DNA of 47,865 nucleotides from the sequence record OQ791282; one strand, written 5' to 3'. The notes below the pieces were generated by a model that saw only the letters and a program-made list of their open reading frames with translations, searched no databases and was not told where the DNA came from. This stretch comes from Shigella phage Henu10. Each line of letters begins with the position of its first letter. Within the stretch, counting starts at the first letter, position 1. Made by a program: the position numbers and the translations under genes. Positions 8,735-46,100 of the stretch are shown here, piece after piece.

Positions 8735-9454
8735 ATGAAAGCGTTAATCAAAATTACAGAACAAAACGGAAAACAAGCCGTGTCAGCTAGAGAGTTACAC
8801 TCTTTTTTAGAGATAAAAGATAAATTCACAGATTGGATAAAGCGAATGTTTGAGTATGGATTTATTGAAAACATTGATTATCAGATTTTATCGGATTTTT
8901 CCGAAAAAATAGGCAGAGGTCGTCCATCGGTTGATTACGCCCTTACACTAGATTGTGCAAAAGAGATTTCAATGTTACAGAGAAGCGAAAAAGGCAAACA
9001 AGCGAGGCGTTACTTCATAGAGTGCGAAAAGAAACTCCGCACAGGGGCTTACGCTTTACCACAGACCTTTGCAGAAGCATTGAAATTAGCCGCCCAACAA
9101 GCAGAGCGTATAGAATTGCAACAGGCAGAACTCAAAAAACAAGCCCCGAAAGTGGCTTATTATGAAGAAGTATTGCAAAGCGAAAGCACTTATAATACCA
9201 ATCAAATAGCAAAAGAGTTAGGTATGAGTGCCATTACGCTTAACAAAAAGTTACAAGATTTAAAAGTTCAGTATCGGCAAGGTGGCACTTGGCTACTCTA
9301 CCACAAATATCAAAATAAAGGCTATACGAAAACTAAAACGCATACCTATACCGATACTAAAGGGGCAACCCAAACCAGTATGCAGACGGTATGGACTGAA
9401 AAAGGGCGTTTATTTATACACGAGGCTTTATCTAAACGCTTACAAAGTGCCTGA
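8735..9454 (+). CDS. AntA/AntB-family phage antirepressor
   Basis: N-terminus MKALIKITEQNGKQAVSARELHSFLEIKDKFTDWIKRMFEYGFIENIDYQ matches the AntA N-terminal domain; paralogue at 22775..23524. Confidence 0.65.
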   Translation: MKALIKITEQNGKQAVSARELHSFLEIKDKFTDWIKRMFEYGFIENIDYQILSDFSEKIGRGRPSVDYALTLDCAKEISMLQRSEKGKQARRYFIECEKKLRTGAYALPQTFAEALKLAAQQAERIELQQAELKKQAPKVAYYEEVLQSESTYNTNQIAKELGMSAITLNKKLQDLKVQYRQGGTWLLYHKYQNKGYTKTKTHTYTDTKGATQTSMQTVWTEKGRLFIHEALSKRLQSA

Positions 9455-9460
9455 TATAGA

Positions 9461-9492
9461 AAAGCACCCTTAATGGGTGTTTTCTTTTTTTA
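9461..9492 (+). terminator. Rho-independent terminator
   Basis: Stem AGCACCC / GGGTGTT (one G-U), loop TTAAT, followed by TTTCTTTTTTT. Confidence 0.5.
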
Positions 9493-9623
9493 GCAATTCA
9501 CAAAGCAGAATATTAAAAAATATTACTAAATTTGCTTTTGTAAGTAAGGGGGACTAAGTTCCCTTTGTTTCAGAATAACAGATTTGGCTTTAGGTTTCGC
9601 AACAAACTTAAAGCCTTTTTTGT

Positions 9624-9809
9624 TTACCGATACTTCTCTAACATTTTTTCTAAATCTTCTGGCGTTTGTTCGGTAAGGTCAATTTCTTTCTCTTTCTTAT
9701 CATCGTCGTAGTCAGGAGCATCTATAAGCATTCGCTGTACGATACGCCAATCCACCTCCCAAAGCAAATAATCTAAAGTCCAGCCGAAATGGTGGCATAT
9801 TTGCCCCAT
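9624..9809 (-). CDS. Tail assembly chaperone, frameshift-extension (T-like) segment
   Basis: Reading frame is -1 relative to 9827..10288 and stays open upstream across that ORF's stop; acidic C-terminus. Confidence 0.4.
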   Translation of the reverse strand: MGQICHHFGWTLDYLLWEVDWRIVQRMLIDAPDYDDDKKEKEIDLTEQTPEDLEKMLEKYR

Positions 9810-9826
9810 AACGCCGTATATAGATT

Positions 9827-10288
9827 TTATTTCTCTATCGGATTCGCTTTGGTTGGACGATTTCCGTTTAACAATGCGATAGAGAGTATAAAATTTGCGT
9901 AGTCAGCCTCTTTTAGTAATGTTTGGGCGAAATTCAGTATTTCTTTTGAAGTATAAGATTTTAATACTTGTCGTTGTATCCACCAGGAAAGAAGTTTGTT
10001 ATCCGTAACGCAAACTGCTATCACTTTGGCTACTTTATGAGCGTTTTGCAATACTGCTTGGTATTGAGCAGACAGTTGTTCTTGAAAATCTTTTGAGTTT
10101 AACGCCTCATCGTTAAGCTCCATAGTGATAAATATCTTAGATAGCCTAAGCATACGCCCCAAAGCCATTTTTTTGGCTTGGAATTTTCTTTTTTTTCCAA
10201 AAAAGGAAGTTACCTCTATTTCAAACCCCTTTCCCGTGAGTAGGTCAAGTTCCTTTTTTTCTGCTTGTATTTGTTCTGTTGTTGTCAT
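9827..10288 (-). CDS. Tail assembly chaperone (G-like)
   Basis: 153-aa ORF between tail tube gene and the tape-measure region; slippery heptamer near its 3' end. Confidence 0.45.
   Translation of the reverse strand: MTTTEQIQAEKKELDLLTGKGFEIEVTSFFGKKRKFQAKKMALGRMLRLSKIFITMELNDEALNSKDFQEQLSAQYQAVLQNAHKVAKVIAVCVTDNKLLSWWIQRQVLKSYTSKEILNFAQTLLKEADYANFILSIALLNGNRPTKANPIEK
9890..9896 (-). other. Candidate -1 programmed ribosomal frameshift site (A_AAT_TTT)
   Basis: Heptamer fits X_XXY_YYZ in the 9827..10288 frame; the -1 frame continues into 9624..9809. Confidence 0.4.
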
Positions 10289-10367
10289 TATGTTTTGCTT
10301 TTAGAAAAAATACCTACCCACAAATGCAGATAGGTATTTCAACAATTAAAAAATAGAAAAATAGAAG

Positions 10368-10871
10368 TTATGCGACTCTAAATGTACTCCATTCCGCCTC
10401 TCCAGCTTTGGTAGGTGTTAAAACTTCCGCTTTAACAACAACTCCCACCCAACTCTCTTTGCCAATGTCAGGGGTAAAACTAGCGGTTATCAAAACTCTA
10501 GGAAATATAAATCCTAAACCTTTTTTAGGCGTGATTTTTAGTGAGCGTTCAATAGTAACCGCAGAAGATGGAGCTTTATAGACTGTTGTTCCTGCTGAAC
10601 CTGATTTAGTTCCGCCAAATACAGCTACTAGAGTATCTTCATCAGGGTTGGCTACTGTAAACTCTATTTTTTTCTCTCCGCTGGTTAAAATAGCATCTGC
10701 TCCGCCGTCAAATTCTTCTACATTTAGTTTTTTTATAGTGGGGTCTCCAAATTGGATTTTACAAGTTCCTTCTTGGGTAAGCCCTAATGCGGCAAATGAT
10801 GTTCCCACTCCTCCGTCTGTAGCGATATTGGAAAGTTCAATCCTTGCTACTCCTAAGTTAAATAAAGGCAT
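10368..10871 (-). CDS. Major tail (tube) protein, putative
   Basis: 167 aa, position immediately upstream of chaperone genes; Gly/Thr-rich beta-type composition. Confidence 0.45.
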   Translation of the reverse strand: MPLFNLGVARIELSNIATDGGVGTSFAALGLTQEGTCKIQFGDPTIKKLNVEEFDGGADAILTSGEKKIEFTVANPDEDTLVAVFGGTKSGSAGTTVYKAPSSAVTIERSLKITPKKGLGFIFPRVLITASFTPDIGKESWVGVVVKAEVLTPTKAGEAEWSTFRVA

Positions 10872-10898
10872 AATAATTTAATTTTAATGGTTATTTTT

Positions 10899-11309
10899 TT
10901 AGTTAAAAGTAGGGTAGGCATTAAGCTGTACCCTGAAATTGTAATAATTTTCGTTTTGTTCTTCAAAGTCCTGATGTGTTTCCACATCAAGGTTATAATC
11001 GTTTTCCCAAACATCGTTTAAAACGGCATAGACCTTATCCGCTATTTCCTTTAGACGCTTGTTGTCTTTATGCAGTTGCGTGATACCACCTACCGTTACA
11101 GACTTTTTAGGCACATAGCAGTTGATATTGAAAACGCCGTTTTGCAGCATTTGGTTCGTCATCGTTAGCGAGTTAATCACAATATCCTCCTTGTTGCTGT
11201 TTACTGGGCGATTGTCTTTGTAAATTTGCCCATTGATGAACTCATTTAACTTTGCCCGAAGTAGCAAGTCTAAAATCCATTGTTTTCCGTCTAATACCGT
11301 TCTTTTCAT
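10899..11309 (-). CDS. Tail completion / neck protein, putative
   Basis: Position within head-tail joining cluster; no motif. Confidence 0.35.
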   Translation of the reverse strand: MKRTVLDGKQWILDLLLRAKLNEFINGQIYKDNRPVNSNKEDIVINSLTMTNQMLQNGVFNINCYVPKKSVTVGGITQLHKDNKRLKEIADKVYAVLNDVWENDYNLDVETHQDFEEQNENYYNFRVQLNAYPTFN

Positions 11310-11749
11310 TGCAACTGTTTTAGTAATATTGGCACTTGTATTTTCGCTAACTGTTCCGCACTTGTAAGCACTACACGCCCTTTGCTTTCTACATAGCTGG
11401 CATATTTCATTCCTGCAACCACAATTAGAGCGATACCTCTAAATTTTGGTGCTACTTGGTAGGCTAACTCTCTACCGTATTTCAATGGGTCTTCTTTGCT
11501 TGGTACGCTTCCGTTAGCTGAAATACTAAAATTTTCCTCAATTACCCTTCCATCTGCTACAATTACATACCCCTTAGAGTTTCTAAGGTTAGCTGTTTGG
11601 TCTTGGTATGTCCCGTTAGCCTTAGCTTCATTAACACACTTTTCGCCCACAAATTTTAAAACCCTTATTAACTTTTGGGTATAGTCTTCCTCTGTTTGTT
11701 TTAGAATAGCATTTATATCATTCATAGAAAACTTTGGAACTAAACCCAT
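11306..11749 (-). CDS. Head-tail joining protein, putative
   Basis: Overlapping start/stop with neighbours in the connector cluster. Confidence 0.35.
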   Translation of the reverse strand: MGLVPKFSMNDINAILKQTEEDYTQKLIRVLKFVGEKCVNEAKANGTYQDQTANLRNSKGYVIVADGRVIEENFSISANGSVPSKEDPLKYGRELAYQVAPKFRGIALIVVAGMKYASYVESKGRVVLTSAEQLAKIQVPILLKQLQ

Positions 11750-12063
11750 ATTCTTGTGTGTAATTGTTCTTTACCAAACCGCTGTACCGTAGCCTCCAAT
11801 CTTAAAATATTGCCGTCCCACACTTGGATTTTAGCCCCCGTGTTGATGCTTGGACAATGTTTTGGAGCGTAAACCACCGCTGAATAAACATAAGCCTCTC
11901 CGTCTGTTTTGGTAATCTTACTACCACCACCGTTAATTTCATCTCTACAATAACCAACAGTAACCCACTTCGCTTCTCCGTCTTCCCATTCTGCCGTAGC
12001 TTGGTTAAAAGTCGCTTCTGTTTCTTGAAGTACTTTCAATATGTAAGGATACTGCTTTACCAT
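11740..12063 (-). CDS. Head closure/connector protein, putative
   Basis: Position only. Confidence 0.35.
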   Translation of the reverse strand: MVKQYPYILKVLQETEATFNQATAEWEDGEAKWVTVGYCRDEINGGGSKITKTDGEAYVYSAVVYAPKHCPSINTGAKIQVWDGNILRLEATVQRFGKEQLHTRIWV

Positions 12064-12380
12064 TGGTTAGAAATGTCTTTAATTGTTGGTTTAGGCAAAA
12101 GATTAGGCTTTCCCAGTTTCTCACATAGCATTTGATAATAGCCCTCTACTGCTTTTTTATCAAAAGATATAGAGTATCCGCCCTCACTAACGCTGTTTGG
12201 GAGCAATAACATTTCGGGGAGCAAATTGTAGAAAAACAAATCTAATTTAGAGGCTGTTTCATTGTTATACTCGCTTTCTATTTGCAAGTCTAACTTTGAT
12301 AATTCTGCACTAATTAAGGCGTCAGAGTAAGACACCGACCATAAATTTAGTTTCTCTCTGATATACTCCCCGATAGTCAT
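12057..12380 (-). CDS. Head-tail adaptor protein, putative
   Basis: Position directly downstream of major capsid gene. Confidence 0.35.
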   Translation of the reverse strand: MTIGEYIREKLNLWSVSYSDALISAELSKLDLQIESEYNNETASKLDLFFYNLLPEMLLLPNSVSEGGYSISFDKKAVEGYYQMLCEKLGKPNLLPKPTIKDISNQW

Positions 12381-13462
12381 TAGAATTTCGTCTTTAAGAT
12401 TAAATTTTGTCTTGTGTTGTTCAACACAGGCACGGCAAACGCAGTTCCTTTGGTTGAAATACTAATCGGGTCTTGGTGTCCGAAAGTTTTCACAAGGATA
12501 AAATCATCTTTGACCGCCTTACTCATTACATCAGGGAAATTCATGTTAAACTCCGTAGTAGTTGTGTACTGGGTAGTTCCTAAGATTGGAGACACAGAAA
12601 ATAAAATATTTCCAGCTTCCCAACCATTAGTGGCTTCTACTTGCCCTGCTTTGTTTTCGTGAGCAACAAACGATTCTACCAATCTAAATGTAGGCAACCC
12701 ATTTCCTTGCATTTGGGCATTTAACTGTTCTATTGTAATGTTAGGCAATACTGTAGAAGAGTTTACAGGAATACCGTGTACAAACTGACGAACCAAAGGA
12801 TTAGCAAGTAATACATCTAACACATCTCTTTCAAGTGTGATAGTAGTATATCTATACCCTTTACCTCGTGCCTCGCTTTGCAAGTCTGTAATTTCTTTAA
12901 TAGGGTCAGCATCTGCTGCACTAAACCAATTTTTCTTAGCATTTTGAGTTTTGATTTTAAAATCAATCTCCACATTTGCCACGCCCCCAGCGTTATTCGC
13001 AACCGTAGTTTTGAACTTTCCGTTAGAAATTAACTGTTTAGCTACCCATTCCAAACGAGCGTTTACCCCGTCCACCGCAAAGGTTACATCTTCGTAAATT
13101 TTATCAATGAGCTGGTTTTTTATCGCTTGATTTTGAGGGTAAAGAGCAACAGAGTTTCTTAGTTGTTGGATTCTAAGCAAGTCCTTCTCGTCTTTATCCC
13201 TTGCAATTTCAATCTTTGGAATTTCTCCTTTGATTGATTCTATAAAATCACGCCCTTTTCTTGAGGCTTTTGAGCCGATAGCTACAATGTCAGCCATTAT
13301 TTTAGCTCCCATTGACCCCTCTATACTTGCAAAGTTCAAGGTTGGGTTAAACTCCAACGGGAACAAGTTTCTGTATTGAAACCCGCCCAAAGGGTAGGCG
13401 TTCAAAACAGCTTCCAAATTTGCCTGACTAAATTCAGGAATAATATTATTTGCGTTTATCAT
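12380..13462 (-). CDS. Major capsid protein (lambda gpE-like family, putative)
   Basis: 360 aa, preceded by a ~120-aa putative decoration protein and a scaffold-like protein, as in lambda-like head modules. Confidence 0.6.
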   Translation of the reverse strand: MINANNIIPEFSQANLEAVLNAYPLGGFQYRNLFPLEFNPTLNFASIEGSMGAKIMADIVAIGSKASRKGRDFIESIKGEIPKIEIARDKDEKDLLRIQQLRNSVALYPQNQAIKNQLIDKIYEDVTFAVDGVNARLEWVAKQLISNGKFKTTVANNAGGVANVEIDFKIKTQNAKKNWFSAADADPIKEITDLQSEARGKGYRYTTITLERDVLDVLLANPLVRQFVHGIPVNSSTVLPNITIEQLNAQMQGNGLPTFRLVESFVAHENKAGQVEATNGWEAGNILFSVSPILGTTQYTTTTEFNMNFPDVMSKAVKDDFILVKTFGHQDPISISTKGTAFAVPVLNNTRQNLILKTKF

Positions 13463-13481
13463 AGTTTAGTTTTTTTTAAGG

Positions 13482-13853
13482 TTAAACGAATGAAATTCTC
13501 GGAAGAACCGTTTTGATAAATCCTACACCTGCTTTCTCTTTGTCAGGTAAAGCATCTTTCCTTGCAGTTCCTGCCATAACAACAGCTACTAAAGGCATAT
13601 CATCAATAACCACATCGTGAGCGGTTAGTCCGATTGCTCCTACAACATTGACAGTAGATAAATCCTCGTTCAACGGCTTGAACATACCCTCTGTATCAGG
13701 AATTAAAAGCGTTCCTGCGGGAACAACACCGTCCGAAAATCTTTCTTTTGCTTTTTCTGCGTTAATATGGACTCCGCCAGTATAAGTTGAGTCCACTTGG
13801 TCAAAAACGACAATCTGACGAGCAATGCCGTCCGTTTTTTTAACTTTTTTCAT
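13482..13853 (-). CDS. Head decoration protein, putative
   Basis: 123 aa immediately upstream of major capsid gene (gpD-like position). Confidence 0.4.
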   Translation of the reverse strand: MKKVKKTDGIARQIVVFDQVDSTYTGGVHINAEKAKERFSDGVVPAGTLLIPDTEGMFKPLNEDLSTVNVVGAIGLTAHDVVIDDMPLVAVVMAGTARKDALPDKEKAGVGFIKTVLPRISFV

Positions 13854-15775: not shown

Positions 15776-16813
15776 AAGTAATTTAGCATTATTTTCTATC
15801 CATTCAGGCTTATACTTCCAATTCTTAAAGCGGTCTTTATTGTCTTTAACCCACTGATTAAACTGCTTCGGTGTTGCTCCTATATAGTATTTAGAGGTTT
15901 CAGGTGGCAGTTCTTGGTTATTGTTGAGTTCCTTTATAAGTTCCTCATCGCTTTTTAAAATGGTTCTTCTGTGGCACATACAGCCAATATGCCACTTGTT
16001 CCAGATAAAGTTTTTAGGGTATCTTCCTGCTAACTCATCGCAAATGTCGTAAACTTTATGACTTGGGGATAAATGAATTTCTACGCCCACCACATCATTA
16101 TTCTGCATTATTCTTATTTGTTCGCTGGTGCGGTAAGCGGTGTTAATTTCTTCCTTAGCTAATCGCAAAGCGTTTTTGTGTGCCGAACGGTAAACGCCCT
16201 GACCTGGATTATAATATTTGGCATTTTGACTTAATACTAAATTGCCGTGCTTGTCTCTTATCCTGCGGTATAGTCTGTCGGGTTCGTTTAGGTTCTTTTT
16301 GATTTTACGAGCGAGTTCATTGGCACTCATTCCCTCCGAAAGGCTAACATCAATAGCCATCTCTAACTCGGACTTTACTTGTTGGGTAATACTCCAAACT
16401 CTCTCGGATAGTGTAAAATCGTTTATCTTTCGTTGCTGAAAAGAATGTAAGGCTTTGAGGTTATGAGGCGTTTTTGCTACCTTTTCAATCTCTCGGATAT
16501 AGGTTTCCTTGCTTAGTTTATGAGCTAACCTTTCCAAAGTAGCTATTCGCAAAGCATTGTATTTTTCATTTGCGAATTGCCACTGTTTCTCCGTTCCTAT
16601 ATTGATAGTATTAAGCGTGTTTTTGTAATAAGAATCTAAAGCCTTTTCAATCTCCAGTAGTATTTTTTTATTATTGCGGAAGCGGTAAATCTTGTTTGTA
16701 ATATCAGACTTAACGACCAAAGATGAAACCCTTGCAATCAAACCATTGTAGATTTGTTCAAGGGTTCTTCCGTATTGTTTTACTCGTTTCCTATGTAGTG
16801 TATCAAAGTCCAT
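15770..16813 (-). CDS. Phage head morphogenesis (minor head) protein, putative
   Basis: 347 aa directly downstream of putative portal gene with coupled start/stop. Confidence 0.45.
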   Translation of the reverse strand: MDFDTLHRKRVKQYGRTLEQIYNGLIARVSSLVVKSDITNKIYRFRNNKKILLEIEKALDSYYKNTLNTINIGTEKQWQFANEKYNALRIATLERLAHKLSKETYIREIEKVAKTPHNLKALHSFQQRKINDFTLSERVWSITQQVKSELEMAIDVSLSEGMSANELARKIKKNLNEPDRLYRRIRDKHGNLVLSQNAKYYNPGQGVYRSAHKNALRLAKEEINTAYRTSEQIRIMQNNDVVGVEIHLSPSHKVYDICDELAGRYPKNFIWNKWHIGCMCHRRTILKSDEELIKELNNNQELPPETSKYYIGATPKQFNQWVKDNKDRFKNWKYKPEWIENNAKLLS

Positions 16814-18171
16814 CAGATAGCGAATGATTTGCTATTAGCCAATTCGTTAATTCTATCGTCTTCCTCTTGTATCTGCTGTATCATTTCTTTTGGATTCTTA
16901 ATGCCGAGTTTTTGCATAGCATATTCTTGCGAGTAGAGAGGCTTATTGCCATTAGCTTCCATTAAGAAACGAACGAAATCCGCATCGTTATTGATGATGA
17001 AAGGAGTAATAATTGGCTCTACATCTAAGTCATTATTCTTTAGTTTTACATTGAACATTTGTAGGTGCGACTTGATGATACTTGCTCTTCTTTGAAGGGC
17101 AGGAATATAAATAGCCAGCTTGTCCATTACCTTGAGGTGTGCCGATAAAAACAAAAATTCAGCATTGCTTCCTGCTAACATATTACCCAAACCTTTCATA
17201 TTGTCAAAGCTAATATTTGGTGTAGCGGTAAAGTCGTGAACATCTCGTTCTAAACGGTCGGTTTCTTCCGTGAGGCTTTGGTTAGCTTGGGGTTGATTGG
17301 CAAATTCAGCTTCCGCTCCTTCTTCTAACTGTAGTACACGCCCAGACTTGTCTTGTGATAACTGCCCTGTTACTTTGCCTTTTAGTTTTAAAATAGGAAA
17401 AGAAAAGCGGTCGTTGCTTTCTGCGGTGTTAGAATAAATGTGCTCCAATCTTTCAATGGCAGTTTGCACATCTGCCCACTCTACATTTTCCTGCTTGTAG
17501 TACACTATCGGAATTTTTCCTATTGCGTTAGGAATATCGCTTATTTTTTTCCATTCTTTTTCTTGTTCATATCTGATAATCCTTTCGTCTGTATAAACCT
17601 CAAAAATGGTTTTATTTCCATTCTTGAACTCCCGAGCAAAAGAAATAAGGTTGTCGTTTTCGTCAAATTTCGGATATAAGCTATAAATGTCAGGTGTCAA
17701 AACTTTAACCTTTAGCCTAAATTTTGCTCTAAACCCATAATGTTCGTTAGGTTCATCGGTAAAATACCAAAGCTCGGCACATTCTGTAAATCGTCCCACA
17801 GAGGTTGCGATTTCCCTATCCACAAATTTCATCTTGTTTTTTTCAATAACCTTTAAAAAGGCTTTAAATAGCTCATCGTCCTCGAGGTTATTCGTGTATT
17901 TGATAGGTTCGCCACATAAAAAGGTAGTTGCTATATTGACTATCTTTTTTTGATAGGGAAGACCGATGCGATTAAGGGGTATGGTTACTTTTTGTTTTTG
18001 CTTATTTCCTTTTTCGTCTGTATAGTCTGACACCACCGTTCTATCCGGGTATTTTACCAAATCGGTAAAAATTTTATGCTTTTTTACTTCATATTGGGAG
18101 TTGAACAGCGTAATATCAGGCAAAGTACGCTCCCCTTTATGTTTTTCTATTTCTTGAGCAATGGTATTCAT
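16813..18171 (-). CDS. Portal protein, putative
   Basis: 452 aa immediately downstream of terminase large subunit. Confidence 0.55.
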   Translation of the reverse strand: MNTIAQEIEKHKGERTLPDITLFNSQYEVKKHKIFTDLVKYPDRTVVSDYTDEKGNKQKQKVTIPLNRIGLPYQKKIVNIATTFLCGEPIKYTNNLEDDELFKAFLKVIEKNKMKFVDREIATSVGRFTECAELWYFTDEPNEHYGFRAKFRLKVKVLTPDIYSLYPKFDENDNLISFAREFKNGNKTIFEVYTDERIIRYEQEKEWKKISDIPNAIGKIPIVYYKQENVEWADVQTAIERLEHIYSNTAESNDRFSFPILKLKGKVTGQLSQDKSGRVLQLEEGAEAEFANQPQANQSLTEETDRLERDVHDFTATPNISFDNMKGLGNMLAGSNAEFLFLSAHLKVMDKLAIYIPALQRRASIIKSHLQMFNVKLKNNDLDVEPIITPFIINNDADFVRFLMEANGNKPLYSQEYAMQKLGIKNPKEMIQQIQEEDDRINELANSKSFAI

Positions 18172-18284: not shown

Positions 18285-19583
18285 TTACAAAATACTCGCA
18301 ATCTGCTGTAAATCGTTTTGGATAGGTTCGTCAAGTTCTATAAAGCCGTAACGAAGAGCATCTATCAAGTGGTTATGTTTGTCAATAGGGATACCAGCTT
18401 TTTTATCGTTCCAAGCGTAATTGCGGAGTTCCTTTTTGAGGTTATGGCTATTCTCGGTTACAATAATTTGATATTCTAACATTTTTAAAATAGAGGCGGA
18501 CACGATGCCAGGCTTTTTCTTTGTTGGTTTTATGTTTAATCCTTTTTTACGCAAGTCCTCAATTAGTCGTGGCTCAGCACTATCGCCTACTATTAAATCA
18601 TTTTCTCGGTCTATAAGGCTTTTATTTAGCAGATACAAATCATCTGTTGAGAGTTGATTGTTTCCGTAATATTTCTCATCAGCATAGATAATTTTTCTTT
18701 TGTGGTCAATAGCTACCTTAACTAATGTATCTGGGTCTATGCTAAATCCGTAATCTTGACCATAGCAGTAAGGAATAGATGTGTCAAAGTCGCCTTCCTT
18801 CCAATTAGTAAAGATAACGCCCTCTGCCATATCAGACCACCTGCCTATGATTTTTTGAGCGTACTTGCTCTTATTGAATAGGGCTTGGTCTAATTTACCG
18901 TTTATAGTACACTGCTCTATACTTTCCTGTTTTATACGCTCTATATTAGACAAGAATTGTTCTGACAAGTTCTCTATGTTGTCTAAATAGGTCGTGTGGA
19001 TATGTAGGACATCGGGGTGGGTGCTTATCTGTACATCTACACCGTCAATCTGTACTATCTTATGGGTATTTTCAATATATTTTTTATAAATAAAATGGTC
19101 GGAGTCGGTAGGGTTGAGTATCAGTATAACTCTTAATTGTTTATTTTTCTGACGAATGGATAGGATTAACTTTTCGTAATCTTCCTCGTTTTCCCACTCT
19201 TCCATTTCATCGCCCACGAAGGTGGTTATCCCCTGTATGGATTTAAGGTTTGCTGTTTGGTTTCCTGACGAAGTTTTTATCCCTCTAAATAAAATACTAC
19301 TTCCTGAAAATTTATTTAGTATTTCATTGTTTGTTACTGTAAAATACTCCTGCACGCCCTCTTTTTCTATTTTTTCCTCAAACTCTGGAATGATAGAAAT
19401 ACGAGCGGAGGTCATCGTGTAACGGCTAAAGAGCATCTTATGCCCAGCTTCAAAAGATAATCGCTCTACAAAGGTAGTCGCATTATAGGATTTTGCAGAC
19501 CCTCTACCTCCAGTAAGGAGTATAATAAACTTGTCTTTGTTGGTGTAAAGAGGGTTATATACTTCTTGTGTTTTTATTGGCAT
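18285..19583 (-). CDS. terL: Terminase large subunit
   Basis: 432 aa; Walker A LLTGGRGSAKS near N-terminus; nuclease-type C-terminal half; follows small subunit. Confidence 0.8.
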   Translation of the reverse strand: MPIKTQEVYNPLYTNKDKFIILLTGGRGSAKSYNATTFVERLSFEAGHKMLFSRYTMTSARISIIPEFEEKIEKEGVQEYFTVTNNEILNKFSGSSILFRGIKTSSGNQTANLKSIQGITTFVGDEMEEWENEEDYEKLILSIRQKNKQLRVILILNPTDSDHFIYKKYIENTHKIVQIDGVDVQISTHPDVLHIHTTYLDNIENLSEQFLSNIERIKQESIEQCTINGKLDQALFNKSKYAQKIIGRWSDMAEGVIFTNWKEGDFDTSIPYCYGQDYGFSIDPDTLVKVAIDHKRKIIYADEKYYGNNQLSTDDLYLLNKSLIDRENDLIVGDSAEPRLIEDLRKKGLNIKPTKKKPGIVSASILKMLEYQIIVTENSHNLKKELRNYAWNDKKAGIPIDKHNHLIDALRYGFIELDEPIQNDLQQIASIL

Positions 19584-23526: not shown

Positions 23527-23847
23527 TTAGGCAGATTTAGTGTTAAGCAAAATATCATCTGTCAACAATTCTACATCTTCAAAAAAATCTTTAGGTAATC
23601 GGTTGTGCATCGCCCAAAGCAAAGAGGCTAAGTTGGCTACTCTTTGTTCAGCATTTTGGTAATACCCTTTGCGAATTTCGCCTGTAAGCATATCCATTTG
23701 CTCTGTAACTAGGTAAAATAGATTGTCTTGGTCTACACCAAAACAAGAGTTAAACTCAGATAGGCGTTTTGCTCTATCAATGGTTTTTTGGTTTTGCACC
23801 TCGCTACTGTTGTTTGCGGTTGGTGCGGTTGTTTGATGGTTTAACAT
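23527..23847 (-). CDS. Hypothetical protein (first gene of second antirepressor cassette)
   Basis: N-terminus MLNHQTTAPTANNSSEVQ paralogous to 8340..8732. Confidence 0.5.
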   Translation of the reverse strand: MLNHQTTAPTANNSSEVQNQKTIDRAKRLSEFNSCFGVDQDNLFYLVTEQMDMLTGEIRKGYYQNAEQRVANLASLLWAMHNRLPKDFFEDVELLTDDILLNTKSA

Positions 23848-24030
23848 AATAATTAAAAATAAAATAGGCGTAAGTAGGTGCTGTTAAACCATCGTGTTCA
23901 CGAAAGTGTATAATATTACTATTATACGACACCCTTACGCCTGTAAGTTTATATTTTATTTTTATTGAGTATACAACTACTCACGATGGTTTAACACTGC
24001 AAATATACGACTATTTTTTTAACCACCAAA
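23835..24030 (-). promoter_or_regulatory. Promoter plus structured 5' leader, paralogous copy
   Basis: -33 TTTG and -7 TATATTTG (24007..24000) on minus strand; arm1 GTTAAACCATCGTG, arm2 CACGATGGTTTAAC and start-codon copy GTTAAACCATC co-vary relative to copy 1; the stem CGTGAGTAG / CTACTTACG has a G-U pair only in the sense RNA. Confidence 0.6.
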
Positions 24031-30234: not shown

Positions 30235-30558
30235 CTAAGGCTTTTCTTCGTTGCTCCTTGCTTCGTTGGAGTGTAATTCCTTCCATTCTTTGGTGTCTTT
30301 TATGGTTAGTATTTCTTTTGGGAATTTCTTTTGTTTTTCAAGCTCTACAAAGTTTTTCAGTTCTTCGCTAAAAACTGTTTTCTTTTTAGCTAACTCGGCA
30401 ATCATTTTGAGTGGGAGGGAGGGGGCTTTAACCTTGCAATCTCTGCTCTCAGTTGTATATTTTCTATCGAAAGCCGTTTTATCATCGTGAATAAGTCTTT
30501 GGTTTGGTAATTCACTTGTTCTGATATTTGCTGTATTTGCTGTATTCCTTTGTACCAT
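30235..30558 (-). CDS. Hypothetical protein (overlaps 30402..30803 in another frame)
   Basis: ORF track only. Confidence 0.25.
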   Translation of the reverse strand: MVQRNTANTANIRTSELPNQRLIHDDKTAFDRKYTTESRDCKVKAPSLPLKMIAELAKKKTVFSEELKNFVELEKQKKFPKEILTIKDTKEWKELHSNEARSNEEKP

Positions 30559-30803
30559 TTTGTTTTTTTTAGTTTTTCTAATCCTTTAAGACCTTCTTCT
30601 GGACTTAAAGGGTGTTTTTGTAACACTTTCAAATCACATTCAGAGAGGTATTTATGAGACCAATCTGTAATGAATCTTATTTTATCACTCATCAACTTCT
30701 GATAATGAACATCTGTTACACTTTCTGTTTTTGCGTTGGCGTCCATTACAAAGTTTATGAACGCTTCTTTCACTTCGTCAGAAAGGCATCTCGTCTGTTT
30801 CAT
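30402..30803 (-). CDS. Hypothetical protein
   Basis: 133-aa ORF immediately downstream of helicase gene. Confidence 0.35.
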   Translation of the reverse strand: MKQTRCLSDEVKEAFINFVMDANAKTESVTDVHYQKLMSDKIRFITDWSHKYLSECDLKVLQKHPLSPEEGLKGLEKLKKTKWYKGIQQIQQISEQVNYQTKDLFTMIKRLSIENIQLRAEIARLKPPPSHSK

Positions 30804-38228: not shown

Positions 38229-39545
38229 ATGGCAAAAAATGGTCAAAAAGTTTCCCTCTCTCTCCGCAAAAAGGAGTTAAGCCGTTGTAAATCAACGGTT
38301 TTGCTTTATAAAACAGGTCTTAAAGCACAAAAGTGCACAAATTCCATTTCCGCTACCCCTAATGTCCAACACTTTAATTTGGACGAAATGGAAAATTATT
38401 GGACTAATCCCAAAGTGAAACATTACCCCTTAGAAACAGGTAAGGATTGGTATGTTTGGTTTCGATTTAACGGAGGTAATCCCATTAGAGTAAAGCAAGG
38501 GCTTAATCAGATTCCAGAATTTGAGGAAAGGCTGCAAGAGGCTTATGCAATGGCAGATGTCATAAGAGAAAGGCTAGAGAGTGGTTGGGTTCCTCAAAGT
38601 GCTAAAGTGAGGGTAAAAAGGATAAATCTTATAGATGCCGTTATATTTGGCTTTGAGGAAAAAAAGAAAACTCTTTCAAAAAACAGCATCGATAATTTTA
38701 GAAGCTCTGTCAATTTCTTTATTGAAGCGGTCAAGGAGTTGCAATATCACAGAATGCAGGTGTCTAGTTTTGAAAGGATACAAGCTAAAGAGGTTCTGGA
38801 ACATCTAAAAAATGAGAAAGGCTGGTCTAACAAGACTTATAATAAACATCTTGGTTTTTTAAGGTCTGTTTTTCACGAAATACTTGACGCTGACTACATA
38901 AAAAGTAATCCATTTAGAGACATTAGAAATCTAAAGGTTCTAAAAAAAGAAGCAAATGTACCTCCAACAAATGAGGAGATGAAAGCTATATCTAACGCTT
39001 TGCAGGATTACTGTTTTGGGTTCTATGTCTTTTGTTCCACTATCTATTATTGCGGTATCCGTCCTGCGGAGTTGGTGCAAATGAAAGTATCAATGCTAGA
39101 TTTGGATAACGAGCTAATCAATTTACCTGCTGAAATAACAAAAACAGATGCTGATAGGGTAGTACCCATAAGCGAAAACTTGAAAAGTCTATTTTCAAAA
39201 TTTAACCTTTCTAATCCTCATAATTATTTGTTTGGTACTTGCGTGCCGAATGGAGGAAGGCACGGTATTAAAAATAGATATTTTGAGCCTAATGAGTTCA
39301 AAGTAAAGGAAGACACAGCTAATAAGCTATGGCGTAGGCTGATAAAAGACGGCTTAGGCATTGACAAAAATATGTACTCCTTGAAGCACAAAGGAGCAGA
39401 CGATAAAATATTAGCAGGAATGCCTATTGAAACCATACAGGCTATATTTGGACACTCTACTCAAAAAATGACCGAGCGATATGCTAGGATAATGAAATTG
39501 CAAAGATTTGAAGAGGCTAAAAAAATAAAGTTGCCTTCTTTTTAG
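38229..39545 (+). CDS. int: Tyrosine integrase (true start may be ATG 38388)
   Basis: C-terminal catalytic region ...GHSTQKMTERYARI (H-x-x-x-T-x-x-Y); a terminator-like hairpin and a 16-bp direct repeat lie within the first 160 nt of the track ORF. Confidence 0.8.
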   Translation: MAKNGQKVSLSLRKKELSRCKSTVLLYKTGLKAQKCTNSISATPNVQHFNLDEMENYWTNPKVKHYPLETGKDWYVWFRFNGGNPIRVKQGLNQIPEFEERLQEAYAMADVIRERLESGWVPQSAKVRVKRINLIDAVIFGFEEKKKTLSKNSIDNFRSSVNFFIEAVKELQYHRMQVSSFERIQAKEVLEHLKNEKGWSNKTYNKHLGFLRSVFHEILDADYIKSNPFRDIRNLKVLKKEANVPPTNEEMKAISNALQDYCFGFYVFCSTIYYCGIRPAELVQMKVSMLDLDNELINLPAEITKTDADRVVPISENLKSLFSKFNLSNPHNYLFGTCVPNGGRHGIKNRYFEPNEFKVKEDTANKLWRRLIKDGLGIDKNMYSLKHKGADDKILAGMPIETIQAIFGHSTQKMTERYARIMKLQRFEEAKKIKLPSF

Positions 39546-43113: not shown

Positions 43114-46100
43114 TTATGAATAATTTGTTATTATACCTTTTCTAATGGTAAGCCATACTCCCCCCAAAAATAATTCTCCTGTATATCCTACCTCTCCACC
43201 CACACGAATATCTCCCGATTCTATATTTAAGGCAGTAGCATACTGTCCGTCAGCCCTTATAGATAGGGCGTTGTAGGGCGTATAATTGTTCACATCACGC
43301 CCCCAGAGCCGAAGTATATTGTTTTTATTTCCGTTTAAAATACTATCATCATTATTGATGAGAGCATAGCTTTCTCTCCCAGATGAAAGACTTTTTTTAT
43401 ATGAAAGTATGCTTCCAGATGACTTTATTTCTAAATAGTCGTTTGGGTCTGCTATTCCTTGCCCCGAAAGTGTATTTCCGCTAATATTGAACCTTGCTAT
43501 TTTACCACCTGTAATTTCCATATCAGAGCCATAAACTTTCCCATTATCCAGCACCCTAAATGGTGCATTATGTTTATTGGCGTAGTTCGCTCCTGCTCCA
43601 AATCTCACGCTCATTGCTCCCTCGTCGGTAATACCACTAATAAAAGCGTTTTGATTAGCTTGGTTGCTTCCGACTGACATCAAGTTAGCCATCATCAACC
43701 CGCCTTGAATAGAAGTGAAGTTGTCGGTCTTGGTCTTCACATCAGCCAAAGAGGTTTGCATATTAGCTATTCCTTGTTGAAGGTTGGCAAATAGTGCGTC
43801 CAAGTCTTCGGGGGCGGGTGTCCAATCGGTTGCTTTATTGCCTTTTTCAAGTTTTACATCTTTAAACCAAACTGTATTGTTGCTAAACGCTCTGAGTATA
43901 AAGATGAAATAGGCTGTGTCAGGCTGTGTCCTTATTGTGAAGTTCACATATTTATATTCTGAATTAACAGGGAACTCCCTGTAATTATCAGAATAAACAG
44001 TCGTATGAGTGCCGTTCTCTTTCATTTCTAATGCGTAGAAAAAAGCTGAACCTATCCCCTTAACAAAGGCTGATATTGTATATTCTGTGTTTTTCTCACA
44101 TTTTATATTTTGGTCTATTTGATTGTAAACTTGTCCATCTATCGAGGTTATTTTAACGCTCCTTTCATTAGGTAGAAACTCTGCTTGTGGATACCCTTTG
44201 CTCCAATGCTCTCCACCGTTTTTAAATTCAGTATTGCGAGCTAGGTTTCGACCACCAACAATTACTCCATTGATAGCATTATTAAGTTGAGATGTTGTTG
44301 CACCTCCACCATTACTCACTATTGCCGAAGCGTTTAGTAACTCTGTTTTGATATAGCCTCCCTGCACAATTGTGTTGCCGAGCATTGCTCTTTCTACGGA
44401 GTTCTGCCACGCCATTGTGCCGAGATTATTAAATTTGCTAGTAACCTCGTTTCTATGAGTATTTACCAACGCTTGAGCGTGTGCCTTAGCTTCTTCTAAC
44501 TTCGCCTTAGCTTCATTTATTCTCGCTTGTTCTTCGGCGGTCACTATACTATCTGCGTGAGCCTCTGCTTGCAACCTCGCCAAATTAGCTTTAGCTTCCG
44601 CCACAGCAATAGCTGATTGTTCAGCCTTATCAGCTTTTCCATCTGCGTAGGCTTTTATTAGCGTTTCCTTTAAGTTATCTTGTGCCTGTGCATACTCTTT
44701 AGCTAATTGCAGTTTCTGCTGGGCATCTGCAATCGCTCGTTGTTCTTCTTTGCTAACCTTTCCGTCAGCGTACGCTTCCGCCTGCGTCTTGGCTAAATTA
44801 GCCTGTGCCTGTGCGTAAGCATTAGAGGCTTGTGTTGCCTGTTGCTCGGCTCTTGTAATATCTGATTGTATATCTTCAGGAGCAGGTGTCCAATCAGTAG
44901 CTTTATTTCCTTTTTCTAACTTCCAATTTCTGTGGTAAATTTTTGCAGTTGCAGGAACACTTCCGTCATTATTCCATATCGCATATATGCCCATAAAACG
45001 AGTGTTGTTATATGGAGAATTTTCTATCTTCGTCCAAACATTCGCAGGACAAAATTTTCTATTATTCTCCCCAAAACCTATATACATATCGTGAGTGGGC
45101 TTTACTTCCATTGATTGGATAGTTTCCTGCCCTGTGAGGTCTTCCGTGAAAACACTTATATTATTGAGTAAATGAAAATAGGTAGAAATATAAAAATTAC
45201 CATTATTCACACTTGTTCCAGAAATCCATTTCACTCCATTTTCCTCTCCCTGTGTTAAGTCCCATGTTCTTCCGTTGTTGTTGAACATTCCGTATCCTTT
45301 TTGAGAACCCCTAAGGTAATTTCTACCTCCTACACTTACCGCATCCACCGCTTGTTGTATAGCACTCCCAACTTCCGCATAACCATTACCGCTTTTGAAC
45401 TTAATCGTTCCTGCTATTTCCCCACTATCCAAATCAAAATAGGTTTGTCCGTTGAGCGATTTAATTCTCCCTGCTGTTATTTGCCCTCCGTGCATAAATA
45501 CATTACCGTACATTGCTTCTGCTTCTCGTTTACTGTCTTTTGGTGTGTAGAGTAAGTAACACAAGAAGTAATAATAATCTGACCGACTATCAAACCTTAT
45601 CTGCTCGGTGGTGATATACCACATCGCATTACTACTTCCTCTTGAACATTTCGCATAAACGTAATAAACCTGATTCAATAAATCATTACGGCTGTATGGT
45701 AGTAAATTCCACTCTCTAATATCGTCTTCTAAAGAAAAATGAACCAACTTCCCACCACTAATAAATGTTCTTGCAGGATTACCCTCTATATTAGGATTCA
45801 GACTTATATTTTCTAATGCAAATTGTTGGCTCTTTGCTCCAACCGAAAGCATATTGGCTTCTATACTCTCTGGCTTGATATGTGTAGAGTCAAAGTAACC
45901 CTCTACATCAAAGACACTTTCTCGAAGCTCTTGCAGGTTACGATAACCGTTCAAGTAATTTCGTCGGTTAATTTGTTCCTGCGTTTTTATAACCGTTTTA
46001 GTATCTTTAATATCGGTAAGCAGACTTGCTACAAAGCTGATTTCGTAAGTGTCCGCAATGCCTATTTTGTAATTATATTCATCTAATAAGTCCCTCGTAA

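Follow-up and report, generated by a model that had tools for sequence, protein, structure and literature searches.

A probable G/GT-type programmed -1 frameshift with a conserved downstream hairpin in a gene pair of Bacteroidota siphophages

Two short open reading frames (ORFs) on the minus strand of the window, by which we mean the whole stretch of 47,865 nt analysed here, are entered in public records as two separate hypothetical proteins, with no slip annotated. A previous, sequence-only reading took them for a tail assembly chaperone pair of the G/GT type joined by a -1 frameshift, and remarked that the tape measure gene, which normally comes directly after such a pair, is set apart from it by an island of plus-strand genes. 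The locus raises the question of whether ribosomes shift from the first frame into the second, and whether the products are tail assembly chaperones at all. Judged from the sequence and from its comparison with relatives, the pair very probably uses a real G/GT-type programmed -1 frameshift, with the ORF at 9827-10288 encoding a G-like tail assembly chaperone. The window as a whole is a RAP44-like Riemerella anatipestifer siphophage, and phages PT03, PT15 and PT33 are 100% identical to it over the region searched. The features discussed below are collected in Table 1.

Table 1. Coordinates of the features at and around the putative chaperone locus
Feature	Position	Strand	Remarks
Tape measure protein gene	1967..6148	-	1393 aa
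Bacteroidetes-type -7 promoter-like motif, TAAATTTG	6170..6177	-	21 nt upstream of tape measure ATG
Accessory island	6335..9454	+	four ORFs, opposite strand to structural genes
Big_2 Ig-like lipoprotein	6335-7027	+	island ORF
DUF3800 protein	7183-8016	+	island ORF
Unknown 130-aa ORF	8340-8732	+	island ORF
AntA/KilAC antirepressor	8735-9454	+	island ORF
Second terminator-like site	9461-9483	+	just past antirepressor stop
Terminator-like hairpin with plus-strand T tail	9586..9615	+	convergent gap between island and T stop
T segment, read after the predicted slip	9624..9890	-	-1 frame, 88 aa + stop
Predicted GT fusion	9624..10288	-	221 aa
ORF of the putative G-like tail assembly chaperone	9827..10288	-	zero frame, 153 aa
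Predicted frameshift-stimulating hairpin	9832..9885	-	5' arm 9885-9877 UCUCUAUCG; 3' arm 9840-9832 CGAUAGAGA
Slippery heptamer A_AAU_UUU	9890..9896	-	family-wide invariant core U_UUU (9893-9890)
Tail tube (major tail) protein gene	10368..10871	-	directly upstream of chaperone pair

Frames and coding in the overlap

Both ORFs on which the sequence-only reading was built, of 153 aa and, counted from its ATG, of 61 aa, are present on the minus strand. The annotated 61-aa ORF (9624-9809) is the 3' part of a longer T segment. Its frame, open between 9902 and 9627 and closed by a stop codon at 9626-9624, overlaps the last 73 nt of the G ORF, which confirms that the T frame is -1 relative to G and open across the G stop. 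In the predicted GT fusion, codons 1-133 would be read in the zero frame (10288-9890), base 9890 would be read again and translation would go on in the -1 frame to 9627, giving the junction ...KEADYANF/YTLYRIVK.... The tryptic junction peptide predicted for GT is EADYANFYTLYR, and the corresponding peptide of G is EADYANFILSIALLNGNRPTK.

The comparison set consisted of 157 intact related loci (133 unique) from phages and prophages of Bacteroidota, spanning Flavobacteriales, Bacteroidales, Cytophagales and Chitinophagales. Each of the 157 intact loci combines a G ORF of 100 aa or more (142-238 aa in the listed loci) with a T-like ORF placed -1 relative to it, and G and T share one frame in 0 of the loci analysed. 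Three loci considered as exceptions to the -1 rule were rejected as such: the copy in L096 has decayed, the sequence of L150 is masked by Ns, and L103 uses GGATTTC. Amino acids in the T frame are conserved from the slip site onwards, about 27 codons ahead of ATG 9809; residues L136, Y137, R152 and G159 of the fusion, all located upstream of this annotated start, are invariant. The zero-frame tail of G is conserved as well (P145, E152), and the overlap is thus dual-coding.

When compared with PHROGs, the G ORF matched phrog_12247 (E = 1e-46), whose function is annotated as unknown, and T alone matched phrog_11996 with 116 bits. Since the fusion matches phrog_11996 over residues 29-220, naturally fused homologues might be suspected. 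We rejected this reading, as T alone scores 116.4 bits (profile positions 127-205) and the fusion 119.9, with no match for G alone.

Slippery site and downstream hairpin

The heptamer noticed earlier, AAATTTT at 9896-9890, does lie in the overlap, where it is the sole canonical X_XXY_YYZ motif and is phased GC(A AAT TTT) in the zero frame. By itself it is weak evidence in an AT-rich genome: the genes of the window contain 0.011 in-frame canonical heptamers per codon, and the probability of at least one in a 24-codon overlap is 0.23. What lifts the frameshift signal beyond chance is that relatives conserve the frame, the site and the hairpin downstream of it. The conserved core proves to be a U_UUY tetramer rather than the heptamer. 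Every one of the 133 unique relatives has N_NNU_UUY at the homologous position, most often as GGATTTT (70/133), followed by AAATTTT (36/133), GGGTTTT (14/133), GTCTTTT (8/133) and others, GGATTTC included (5/133). A canonical heptamer is found at the slip site in only 50/133, which indicates that tandem slippage is not the conserved mechanism. Transcriptional slippage was rejected; it requires longer homopolymer runs, and the longest run at the slip site is T4.

The site nevertheless presents a motif of the canonical -1 type (X_XXY_YYZ or Z_ZZN) in the correct phase. Frameshifting on U_UU.Y tetramers occurs in E. coli if a stimulator lies downstream, and H_HH.U_UU.Y heptamers are among the efficient motifs, with heptamers about ten-fold more efficient than tetramers (PMC4066793). 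An upstream Shine-Dalgarno-like GAGG, 10 nt before the heptamer, is not conserved among the relatives. Its lack of conservation is not surprising, as Shine-Dalgarno-like sequences are not recognised by the ribosomes of Bacteroidia (PMC10798248).

In the predicted hairpin the first pair forms 4 nt past the heptamer in this phage, and the conserved CUCUA begins 5 nt past it. The 9-bp stem (CUCUA.../...UAGAG) closes a loop of about 34 nt which encodes the G C-terminus, and the 3' arm stops 2 nt short of the G stop codon. The MFE fold has a z of -3.27, and the same stem was recovered in relatives with the slip site forced unpaired. CUCUA follows a fixed 5-nt spacer in 125/133 unique pairs. No Rfam family matched the hairpin.

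RNAalifold run on a plain MAFFT alignment predicted no structure, because the arms are out of register there: loops are longer in six lineages, and a bulge is present in one clade. It was replaced by an arm-swap test, explicit pair counts and a covariance-model alignment. In the arm-swap test, own arms gave -12.8 kcal/mol vs. -7.1 kcal/mol for crossed arms (p = 5e-4). In the structural alignment of 74 distinct sequences, which was fitted to the model and in which both arms lie within conserved coding sequence, 92% of cells are paired vs. 21-54% with the partner slid. Compensatory double changes occur at 6 of the 9 hairpin pairs, and the number of cells changed on both sides (57) exceeds that in shuffles (18 +/- 3), with 0 of 500 shuffles reaching the observed value. 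The covariance model gave one match per matched locus, 88 among the 93 sources searched, and all matches that were compared with mapped slip sites lie at the junction. These results give the site a stable structure with covariation support, of the kind that canonical -1 signals carry about 5-9 nt downstream of the motif.

Position of the pair, its identity and the accessory island

The product of the tail tube gene matches PF25681 Phage_TTP_17 (30.3 bits, cutoff 27) and phrog_6767, and the gene syntenic with it in Porphyromonas phage005a carries the annotation 'major tail'. The tape measure protein (PF20155 TMP_3, E = 3e-30; phrog_9959 'tail length tape measure protein', E = 0) is encoded by the next same-strand gene past T, which starts 3,475 nt beyond the T stop. 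Porphyromonas phage005a, Bacteroides phage Versailles and a fecal phage likewise carry G/T homologues flanked by the major tail gene and the tape measure gene. Where a tape measure gene is visible (113 relatives), it borders directly on T in 109, in agreement with the claim that it normally follows the pair directly. The locus thus has the layout of G/GT genes: an ORF pair between tube and tape measure genes, here with the 3,475-nt opposite-strand island in between, a -1 second ORF that stays open through the 3' end of the first ORF, and a slippery sequence conserved among relatives.

Searches of G, T, the fusion and 22 relatives against Pfam, chaperone families included, gave no family above threshold, and a PDB profile search gave no match. 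The AlphaFold model of G (pLDDT 72.9) consists of an N-terminal helix, a beta-hairpin and a helical bundle; the T-only model (pLDDT 52) was unreliable and was not used. In BFVD no match to the G model was obtained at E <= 0.001 and TM-scores were at most 0.5. The weak matches are enriched for tail assembly chaperones, with about ten chaperone, G or GT proteins among the named top-50. Synteny and architecture are the grounds for calling the pair chaperones, rather than any homology in sequence or solved structure, and the fold likeness is weak. Of the G/GT architecture proposed earlier, position, frame and site hold; homology to chaperones in sequence or solved structure is not part of the case.

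The separation of the pair from the tape measure gene by a plus-strand accessory island of four ORFs is likewise borne out. GC is 0.28-0.34 over 6001-9000 vs. 0.37-0.40 in flanking windows, and the island content differs among Riemerella phages, RAP44 being without the DUF3800 gene. A gap after T is seen in 4/113 relatives; one of these (L116) has lost its tape measure gene, which leaves 3/113 with both an insert and a tape measure gene. Among the 113 relatives, an insert between T and an intact tape measure gene is found only in Riemerella lineages, and the island is a moron-like insertion specific to the lineage. In Emticicia prophages, inserts that follow T were rejected as independent islands, since these degraded prophages have no tape measure gene or run into host genes.

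The tape measure gene probably has its own promoter, of which the motif TAAATTTG is itself a weak hint. In the window, neither the TAnnTTTG motif alone (89 observed vs. 71 +/- 9 expected) nor the strict Bacteroidetes promoter pattern (6 matches vs. 3.2 expected) is significantly enriched, and as the -7 motif is not enriched we can only infer such a promoter; a sigma-70 promoter scan was uninformative (17 sites vs. 16 expected). With a promoter of its own probable for the tape measure gene, the chaperones would act in trans.

Proposed mechanism, alternatives and known systems

In the mechanism that we propose, most ribosomes would stop at 9829-9827 and yield the G protein of 153 aa. A minority would slip back one base on A_AAU_UUU, with tRNA-Phe in the A site re-pairing from UUU to UUU and tRNA-Asn in the P site from AAU to AAA, while the RNA hairpin presumably pauses the ribosome at the slip site. 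The slipped ribosomes would continue to 9627 and produce the 221-aa GT fusion. If the proteins work like lambda gpG and gpGT, the tape measure protein would be coated by G and by the G portion of GT, the T portion would recruit the tail tube protein, and neither G nor GT would remain in the virion. The sequence and its comparison show the frame layout, the conserved site, the dual-frame coding that begins there, the covariation of the hairpin and the tube/tape measure position of the pair, whereas slippage itself, its efficiency and the chaperone activity are inferred.

The GenBank annotation implies instead two independent genes, with a 61-aa T translated from ATG 9809, e.g., by re-initiation, and no fusion. 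This ATG is located 18 nt past the G stop, the pair stands as two hypothetical proteins in all public records and gene callers give T ORFs of 61-68 aa in many Flavobacteriia genomes. Yet T-frame residues are conserved upstream of this ATG up to the slip site, T has no conserved start codon (from the slip site to the conserved FGW motif, 86/125 lineages are without a Met), and the conserved -1 phase, U_UUY site and hairpin are not required by independent initiation, so we regard independent translation of T as extremely unlikely. The notion that overlap and heptamer are coincidental, without recoding function, could draw on the 23% of such overlaps in this genome that are expected to hold an in-frame canonical heptamer, but it is effectively refuted by the comparative data, as the -1 phase, the site and the covarying hairpin are kept in 157/157 intact relatives from four Bacteroidota orders.

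It is also very unlikely that the frameshift is real but serves some other tail or neck accessory factor with a recoded extension. Against this stand the tube/tape measure position kept in 109/113 relatives, the size and the G-plus-short-T layout, which fit the conserved G/GT pattern (PMC5009743), the weak BFVD fold matches, mostly to chaperone, G and GT proteins, and the lack of another candidate ORF pair in the 186 nt that separate the tape measure start from the island; what speaks for it is that known chaperones have no sequence or solved-structure homology to the pair, which in this genome lies 3.5 kb from the tape measure gene. A further alternative concerns the sub-mechanism only, namely a hairpin-driven slip of a single tRNA in the A site on U_UUU, with the AAA triplet incidental. 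We consider it possible but rather doubtful. U_UUY is the sole invariant, the upstream triplet being GGA, GUC, AAG, GUG or GGC in 83/133 relatives, and tetramers need a stimulator (PMC4066793), a conserved one being present here. On the other side, the full A_AAU_UUU is kept in this phage and in 35 other unique relatives, heptamers have the ten-fold advantage in E. coli mentioned above (PMC4066793), and by base-pairing rules many GGAUUUU lineages would permit partial P-site re-pairing (GAU to GGA).

Within the favoured explanation, a G/GT-type programmed frameshift, we lean cautiously towards one conserved -1 recoding cassette (U_UUY, 5-nt spacer and CUCUA.../...UAGAG hairpin) common to the chaperone genes of Bacteroidota siphophages, the hairpin acting as main stimulator on ribosomes that ignore Shine-Dalgarno sequences. 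The Riemerella island would then be a natural experiment showing that tail assembly can do without adjacency in cis of GT and the tape measure gene and without their co-transcription. The pair represents an undescribed and unannotated family that uses the expected mechanism with a family-specific stimulatory hairpin, and current understanding is not overturned. Corrected annotations would follow for every RAP44-like Riemerella phage, a group with several members under study as therapy candidates against a duck pathogen, and for hundreds of prophages of Bacteroidota that have G and T entered as two hypothetical proteins. A chaperone family absent from Pfam would thereby be defined. The compact, covariation-supported frameshift signal can be tested in Bacteroidia, whose translation signals differ from those of E. 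coli, and, with its tape measure gene displaced, this phage lends itself to a simple test of whether the order of G/GT followed by tape measure is mechanistic or only inherited.

Lambda gpG/gpGT and the tail-assembly frameshift were reportedly treated by Levin (1993) and by Xu, Hendrix and Duda (2004, 2013, 2014). The conserved frameshift of long-tailed dsDNA phages, including that of lambda, has been reviewed (PMC5009743). Like lambda gpG/gpGT, the present pair consists of two ORFs between major tail and tape measure genes, the second ORF being -1, with a slippery site where it runs over the 3' end of the first ORF, and the shorter product, of about 150 aa, receives a short C-terminal extension. 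The two pairs differ in that no sequence homology is detectable between them, in the slip site (G_GGA_AAG in lambda vs. the U_UUY-based A_AAU_UUU here), in the covarying downstream hairpin with fixed 5-nt spacer that the present family keeps, and in the 3.5 kb of genes on the opposite strand that displace the tape measure gene in this phage. In the HK97-like cluster of tail assembly chaperone frameshifts, measured efficiencies are 6-7% (PMC3711429); this cluster represents another protein family in other hosts, and the Bacteroidota family was not found reported in that paper.

The order of shift motif, 5-nt spacer and stem-loop is shared with bacterial -1 signals such as those of IS3/IS911 and dnaX, and the site fits the rules for Z_ZZ.N tetramers and X_XX.Z_ZZ.N heptamers (PMC4066793), by which U_UU.Y requires a stimulator and A_AA.U_UU.U falls within the efficient H_HH.U_UU.Y class. 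In contrast to IS3/IS911 and dnaX, the hairpin described here has a large loop that encodes the G C-terminus, and the site is without a conserved upstream Shine-Dalgarno-like stimulator. Finally, the island is similar to phage morons and accessory cassettes of late operons in its low GC, its own promoter-like motifs and terminator-like sites, and its lysogeny-related cargo (antirepressor, surface lipoprotein, DUF3800), which varies between close relatives. It differs from them in that the T/tape measure insertion site is filled in only 3/113 relatives that keep the tape measure gene, and in its orientation, head-on to the structural operon.

Overlapping frames and a conserved slippery site

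The sequence-only reading had placed the T frame -1 relative to G and open past the G stop, with A_AAT_TTT in the overlap, and both points were confirmed. The 153-aa G ORF shares its final 73 nt with a -1 frame of the minus strand that contains the annotated 61-aa T ORF, and the heptamer, phased GC[A AAT TTT], is the sole canonical X_XXY_YYZ within the overlap. A slip at this position is predicted to give a 221-aa fusion (GT) with the junction ...KEADYANF/YTLYRIVK.... Canonical in-frame heptamers occur at 0.011 per codon in this AT-rich genome and the probability of at least one in the 24-codon overlap is 0.23, so the heptamer taken alone is compatible with chance and is weak evidence.

Distant relatives were found by tblastn with the fusion (Porphyromonas phage005a/b, Bacteroides phage Versailles and a fecal phage), all with G-like and T-like ORFs between the major tail and tape measure genes. 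Another 80 loci came from pattern scans of IMG/VR and 80 from bacterial genomes, the latter named Riemerella, Chryseobacterium, Elizabethkingia, Prevotella, Bacteroides, Alistipes, Muribaculaceae, Dysgonomonas, Emticicia, Dyadobacter, Spirosoma and Chitinophaga. In 157/157 intact loci (133 unique G/T pairs) T is preceded by an ORF of at least 100 aa, 142-238 aa among the loci listed, and lies in frame -1 relative to it; G and T share a frame in none of the loci analysed. Seeming exceptions to the -1 rule were dismissed as one decayed copy, one masked sequence and one GGATTTC site. Three loci are degraded prophages: Chryseobacterium sp. E1 (L096, 5400-6400), whose G gene is interrupted by stops and frameshifts; Emticicia sp. 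17c (L116, 6300-11730), where the tape measure gene is gone between T and the distal tail protein; and Emticicia soli (L127, 6400-11200), with host-like genes after T, e.g. an EamA transporter.

Every one of the 133 unique pairs carries N_NNU_UUY at the homologous position, as GGATTTT (70 pairs), AAATTTT (36), GGGTTTT (14), GTCTTTT (8) or singleton sites (5). A canonical heptamer thus stands there in only 50 pairs, with an overlapping U_UUU_UUN in 16 others. [quoted passage not shown] In E. coli, U_UU.Y tetramers shift appreciably only given a downstream stimulator, and H_HH.U_UU.Y heptamers, A_AA.U_UU.U included, are among the efficient ones (PMC4066793); the conserved site agrees with these data.

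A Shine-Dalgarno-like GAGG (AGGAGG in the close relative L007) lies 10 nt 5′ of the heptamer, the spacing found in the dnaX frameshift signal. Other lineages do not keep it, and Bacteroidia ribosomes reportedly disregard such sequences (PMC10798248).

Hairpin downstream of the slip site

The stretch 9896-9790 folds into a hairpin (z = -3.27 vs. shuffles); when the heptamer is constrained to be unpaired, the stem has UCUCUAUCG (9885-9877) pairing with CGAUAGAGA (9840-9832) and finishes 2 nt 5′ of the G stop codon. An equivalent stem is predicted for nearly all relatives; CUCUA begins exactly 5 nt past the heptamer in 125/133 unique pairs, and most lineages have a hairpin of 52 nt, others one of 55-76 nt. 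The inner stem covaries (pairs include AUCG/CGAU, ACGG.../...CCG, ACC/GGU, ACU/AGU, AUUCGA/UCGGAU, AUCAGAU/AUCUGAU). In an arm-swap test, the mean was -12.8 kcal/mol with each lineage's own arms and -7.1 with arms crossed between lineages (p = 5e-4 by permutation), and in a gapless alignment of 44 sequences (42 distinct rows counted) 85-87% of cells were paired vs. 20-55% with the partner slid.

The covariance model built on the 44-sequence alignment returned exactly one match per matched locus (88 matches, 93 sources searched), and all matches compared with mapped slip sites fall at the junction, including lineages outside the training set. The model's structural alignment of 74 distinct sequences has 92% of cells paired, with compensatory double changes in 6/9 pairs and six pair types at pair 22:99. 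Both sides had changed in 57 cells vs. 18 +/- 3 after shuffling (57 being reached in 0/500 shuffles), with the caveat that the sequences are related, the arms code for protein and this alignment was fitted to the model. No Rfam family matches the hairpin.

Translation of T and the chaperone assignment

An alignment of 22 diverse fusions has F133, L136, Y137, R152, G159 and G162 invariant. Conservation extends to the zero-frame tail of G 3′ of the site (F133, S136, P145, E152), so that about 20 codons are dual-coding. Independent initiation of T, for which the annotated ORF offers Met161, is very unlikely: all the invariant residues except G162 precede this Met, and 86/125 lineages have none from the slip site up to the conserved FGW motif. 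T would thus appear to be translated from the slip site rather than from its own ATG. That overlap and heptamer merely coincide has next to no probability. The frame arrangement, conserved site, dual coding, covarying hairpin and synteny are all observed.

The proposed G/GT chaperone architecture stood as to position, size and recoding, which are the original defining criteria of the tail chaperone class (PMC5009743) and on which our assignment rests; sequence searches were uninformative and fold matches weak. Pfam returned nothing for G, T, the fusion or 22 relatives, no relative was found in the PDB, and the PHROG families matched are of unknown function. The G model (pLDDT 72.9, pTM 0.65) has an N-terminal helix, a beta-hairpin and a helical bundle. 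It matched nothing in BFVD at E <= 0.001; among the named top-50 matches, all weaker than this, chaperone proteins predominate: pre-tape measure frameshift protein G of Xylella phage Sano, tail assembly protein GT of phage N15, tail assembly chaperones of Staphylococcus, Serratia, Mycobacterium, Lactobacillus and Arthrobacter phages and an unclassified virus, and tape measure chaperone proteins of Enterococcus and Burkholderia phages. This fold evidence lends weak support, and a recoded protein other than a chaperone seems improbable.

Phage module and the displaced tape measure gene

Region 1300-13500 is 100% identical over the full query (megablast) to Riemerella anatipestifer phages vB_RanS_PT03, PT15 and PT33, and 96-99% identical to RAP44-like temperate siphophages, RAP44 included; PT15 shares its numbering here. 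The PT03, PT15 and PT33 records are 43.8-44.1 kb vs. 47,865 nt for the window, whose origin may be a longer relative or a prophage setting. The minus strand carries the standard structural module. G and T are separate hypothetical proteins, the frameshift unannotated, in the PT03 and RefSeq RAP44 records, and the remaining Riemerella records have only hypothetical proteins beneath the match.

Features of the window discussed in the text
Feature	Position	Strand	Match or remark
217-aa ORF	1317-1970	-	no family match; probably spurious antisense
HigB-like toxin and HTH antitoxin pair	1432-1964	+	PT03 annotation; 1602-1964, phrog_1373 'transcriptional regulator'
Tape measure protein	1967-6148	-	PF20155; phrog_9959, E = 0
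Big_2 Ig-like protein	6335-7027	+	lipoprotein signal peptide MKK...FTSC/SRDDD
Terminator-like hairpin	7071-7094	both	bidirectional
DUF3800 protein	7183-8016	+	
Promoter-like TTTG...AAAAAAATAGTCGTATATTTG	8153-8183	+	5′ of 130-aa/antirepressor genes
Unknown 130-aa protein	8340-8732	+	
AntA/KilAC antirepressor	8735-9454	+	
Terminator-like hairpins	9461-9483; 9586-9615	+	
G/T ORF pair	9624-10288	-	
T ORF as annotated	9624-9809	-	61 aa
Open -1 frame	9902-9627	-	
G ORF	9827-10288	-	153 aa
AAATTTT	9896-9890	-	slip site
GAGG	9907-9910	-	
Tail tube protein	10368-10871	-	PF25681
Major head protein	12380-13462	-	
Portal	16813-18171	-	
Large terminase	18285-19583	-	
Promoter-like TTTG...AAAAAAATAGTCGTATATTTG	24000-24030	-	5′ of minus-strand gene near 23847
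107-aa ORF	30235-30558	-	no PHROG match
133-aa ORF	30402-30803	-	no PHROG match
Integrase	38229-39545	+	phrog_1
1452-aa tail or host-range protein	43114-47472	-	phrog_19846

The integrase gene is consistent with a temperate lifestyle. The 1452-aa protein was rejected as a second tape measure protein; it goes with phrog_19846 and with tail and receptor-binding families. The 133-aa and 107-aa ORFs share 157 nt. An in-frame A_AAA_AAA precedes a 109-codon open -1 frame here, which could be a second recoding site or just overlapping ORF calls. Product names in the PT03 record (L001, MZ995504.1, 1668-9155) look displaced by one gene: 'Ig-like domain-containing protein' is given for the tape measure gene, 'DUF3800 domain-containing protein' for the Ig gene, 'hypothetical protein' for the DUF3800 gene and 'antirepressor KilAC domain-containing protein' for the 130-aa ORF.

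The claim that the tape measure gene normally follows the pair directly, with an accessory island here, was borne out: its start lies only a few bases, or at most 70 nt, from the T stop in 109/113 relatives with a visible tape measure gene. The exceptions are this phage (gap 3,475 nt), viral contig L007, whose chaperone pair is 98% identical (3,483 nt), a Riemerella columbipharyngis prophage (1,742 nt) with a different, same-strand cargo, by eye HicB-type antitoxin-like, and a degraded Emticicia prophage that lost the tape measure gene. RAP44, merged with an identical locus in this count, has a gap of 2,446 nt; such islands are rare. GC is 0.28-0.34 across 6001-9000 vs. 0.37-0.40 in adjoining windows, and content differs among close relatives (RAP44 is without the DUF3800 gene), both signs of island acquisition. 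In the Big_2 Ig-like protein, a candidate lysogenic-conversion surface protein, the N-terminal lipoprotein signal and acidic stretch MKKVLLFFALSLATLGTFTSC-SRDDD resemble the Bacteroidetes surface-lipoprotein export signal. With the toxin-antitoxin pair directly downstream, the tape measure gene has opposite-strand accessory cassettes on either side.

Several terminator-like sites on the minus strand within the island make read-through from G/T into the tape measure gene seem unlikely. A TAAATTTG motif 21 nt 5′ of the tape measure ATG hints at a separate promoter, though only weakly, as the window shows no enrichment of this motif. Should the gene have such a promoter, the tape measure protein would come from a different transcript and the chaperones would act on it in trans. 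The near-identical TTTG...AAAAAAATAGTCGTATATTTG copies suggest co-regulated transcripts.

Programmed -1 frameshifting of the G/GT type, giving tape measure chaperones, is very probably the best explanation. A -1 slip at A_AAU_UUU, stimulated by the downstream hairpin, would yield a major 153-aa G and a minor 221-aa GT, which would jointly serve as chaperones of the tape measure protein and nucleate polymerisation of the tube; slippage itself, its rate and the protein functions are what we infer. No mention of the frameshift was found in two papers on RAP44-like and Porphyromonas phages. As the tail chaperone -1 frameshift mechanism is textbook, what is new here is a frameshift unannotated in the RAP44-like group, a protein family without a Pfam entry, a cassette of U_UUY, 5-nt spacer and hairpin that appears conserved across Bacteroidota, and an unusual, displaced tape measure gene.
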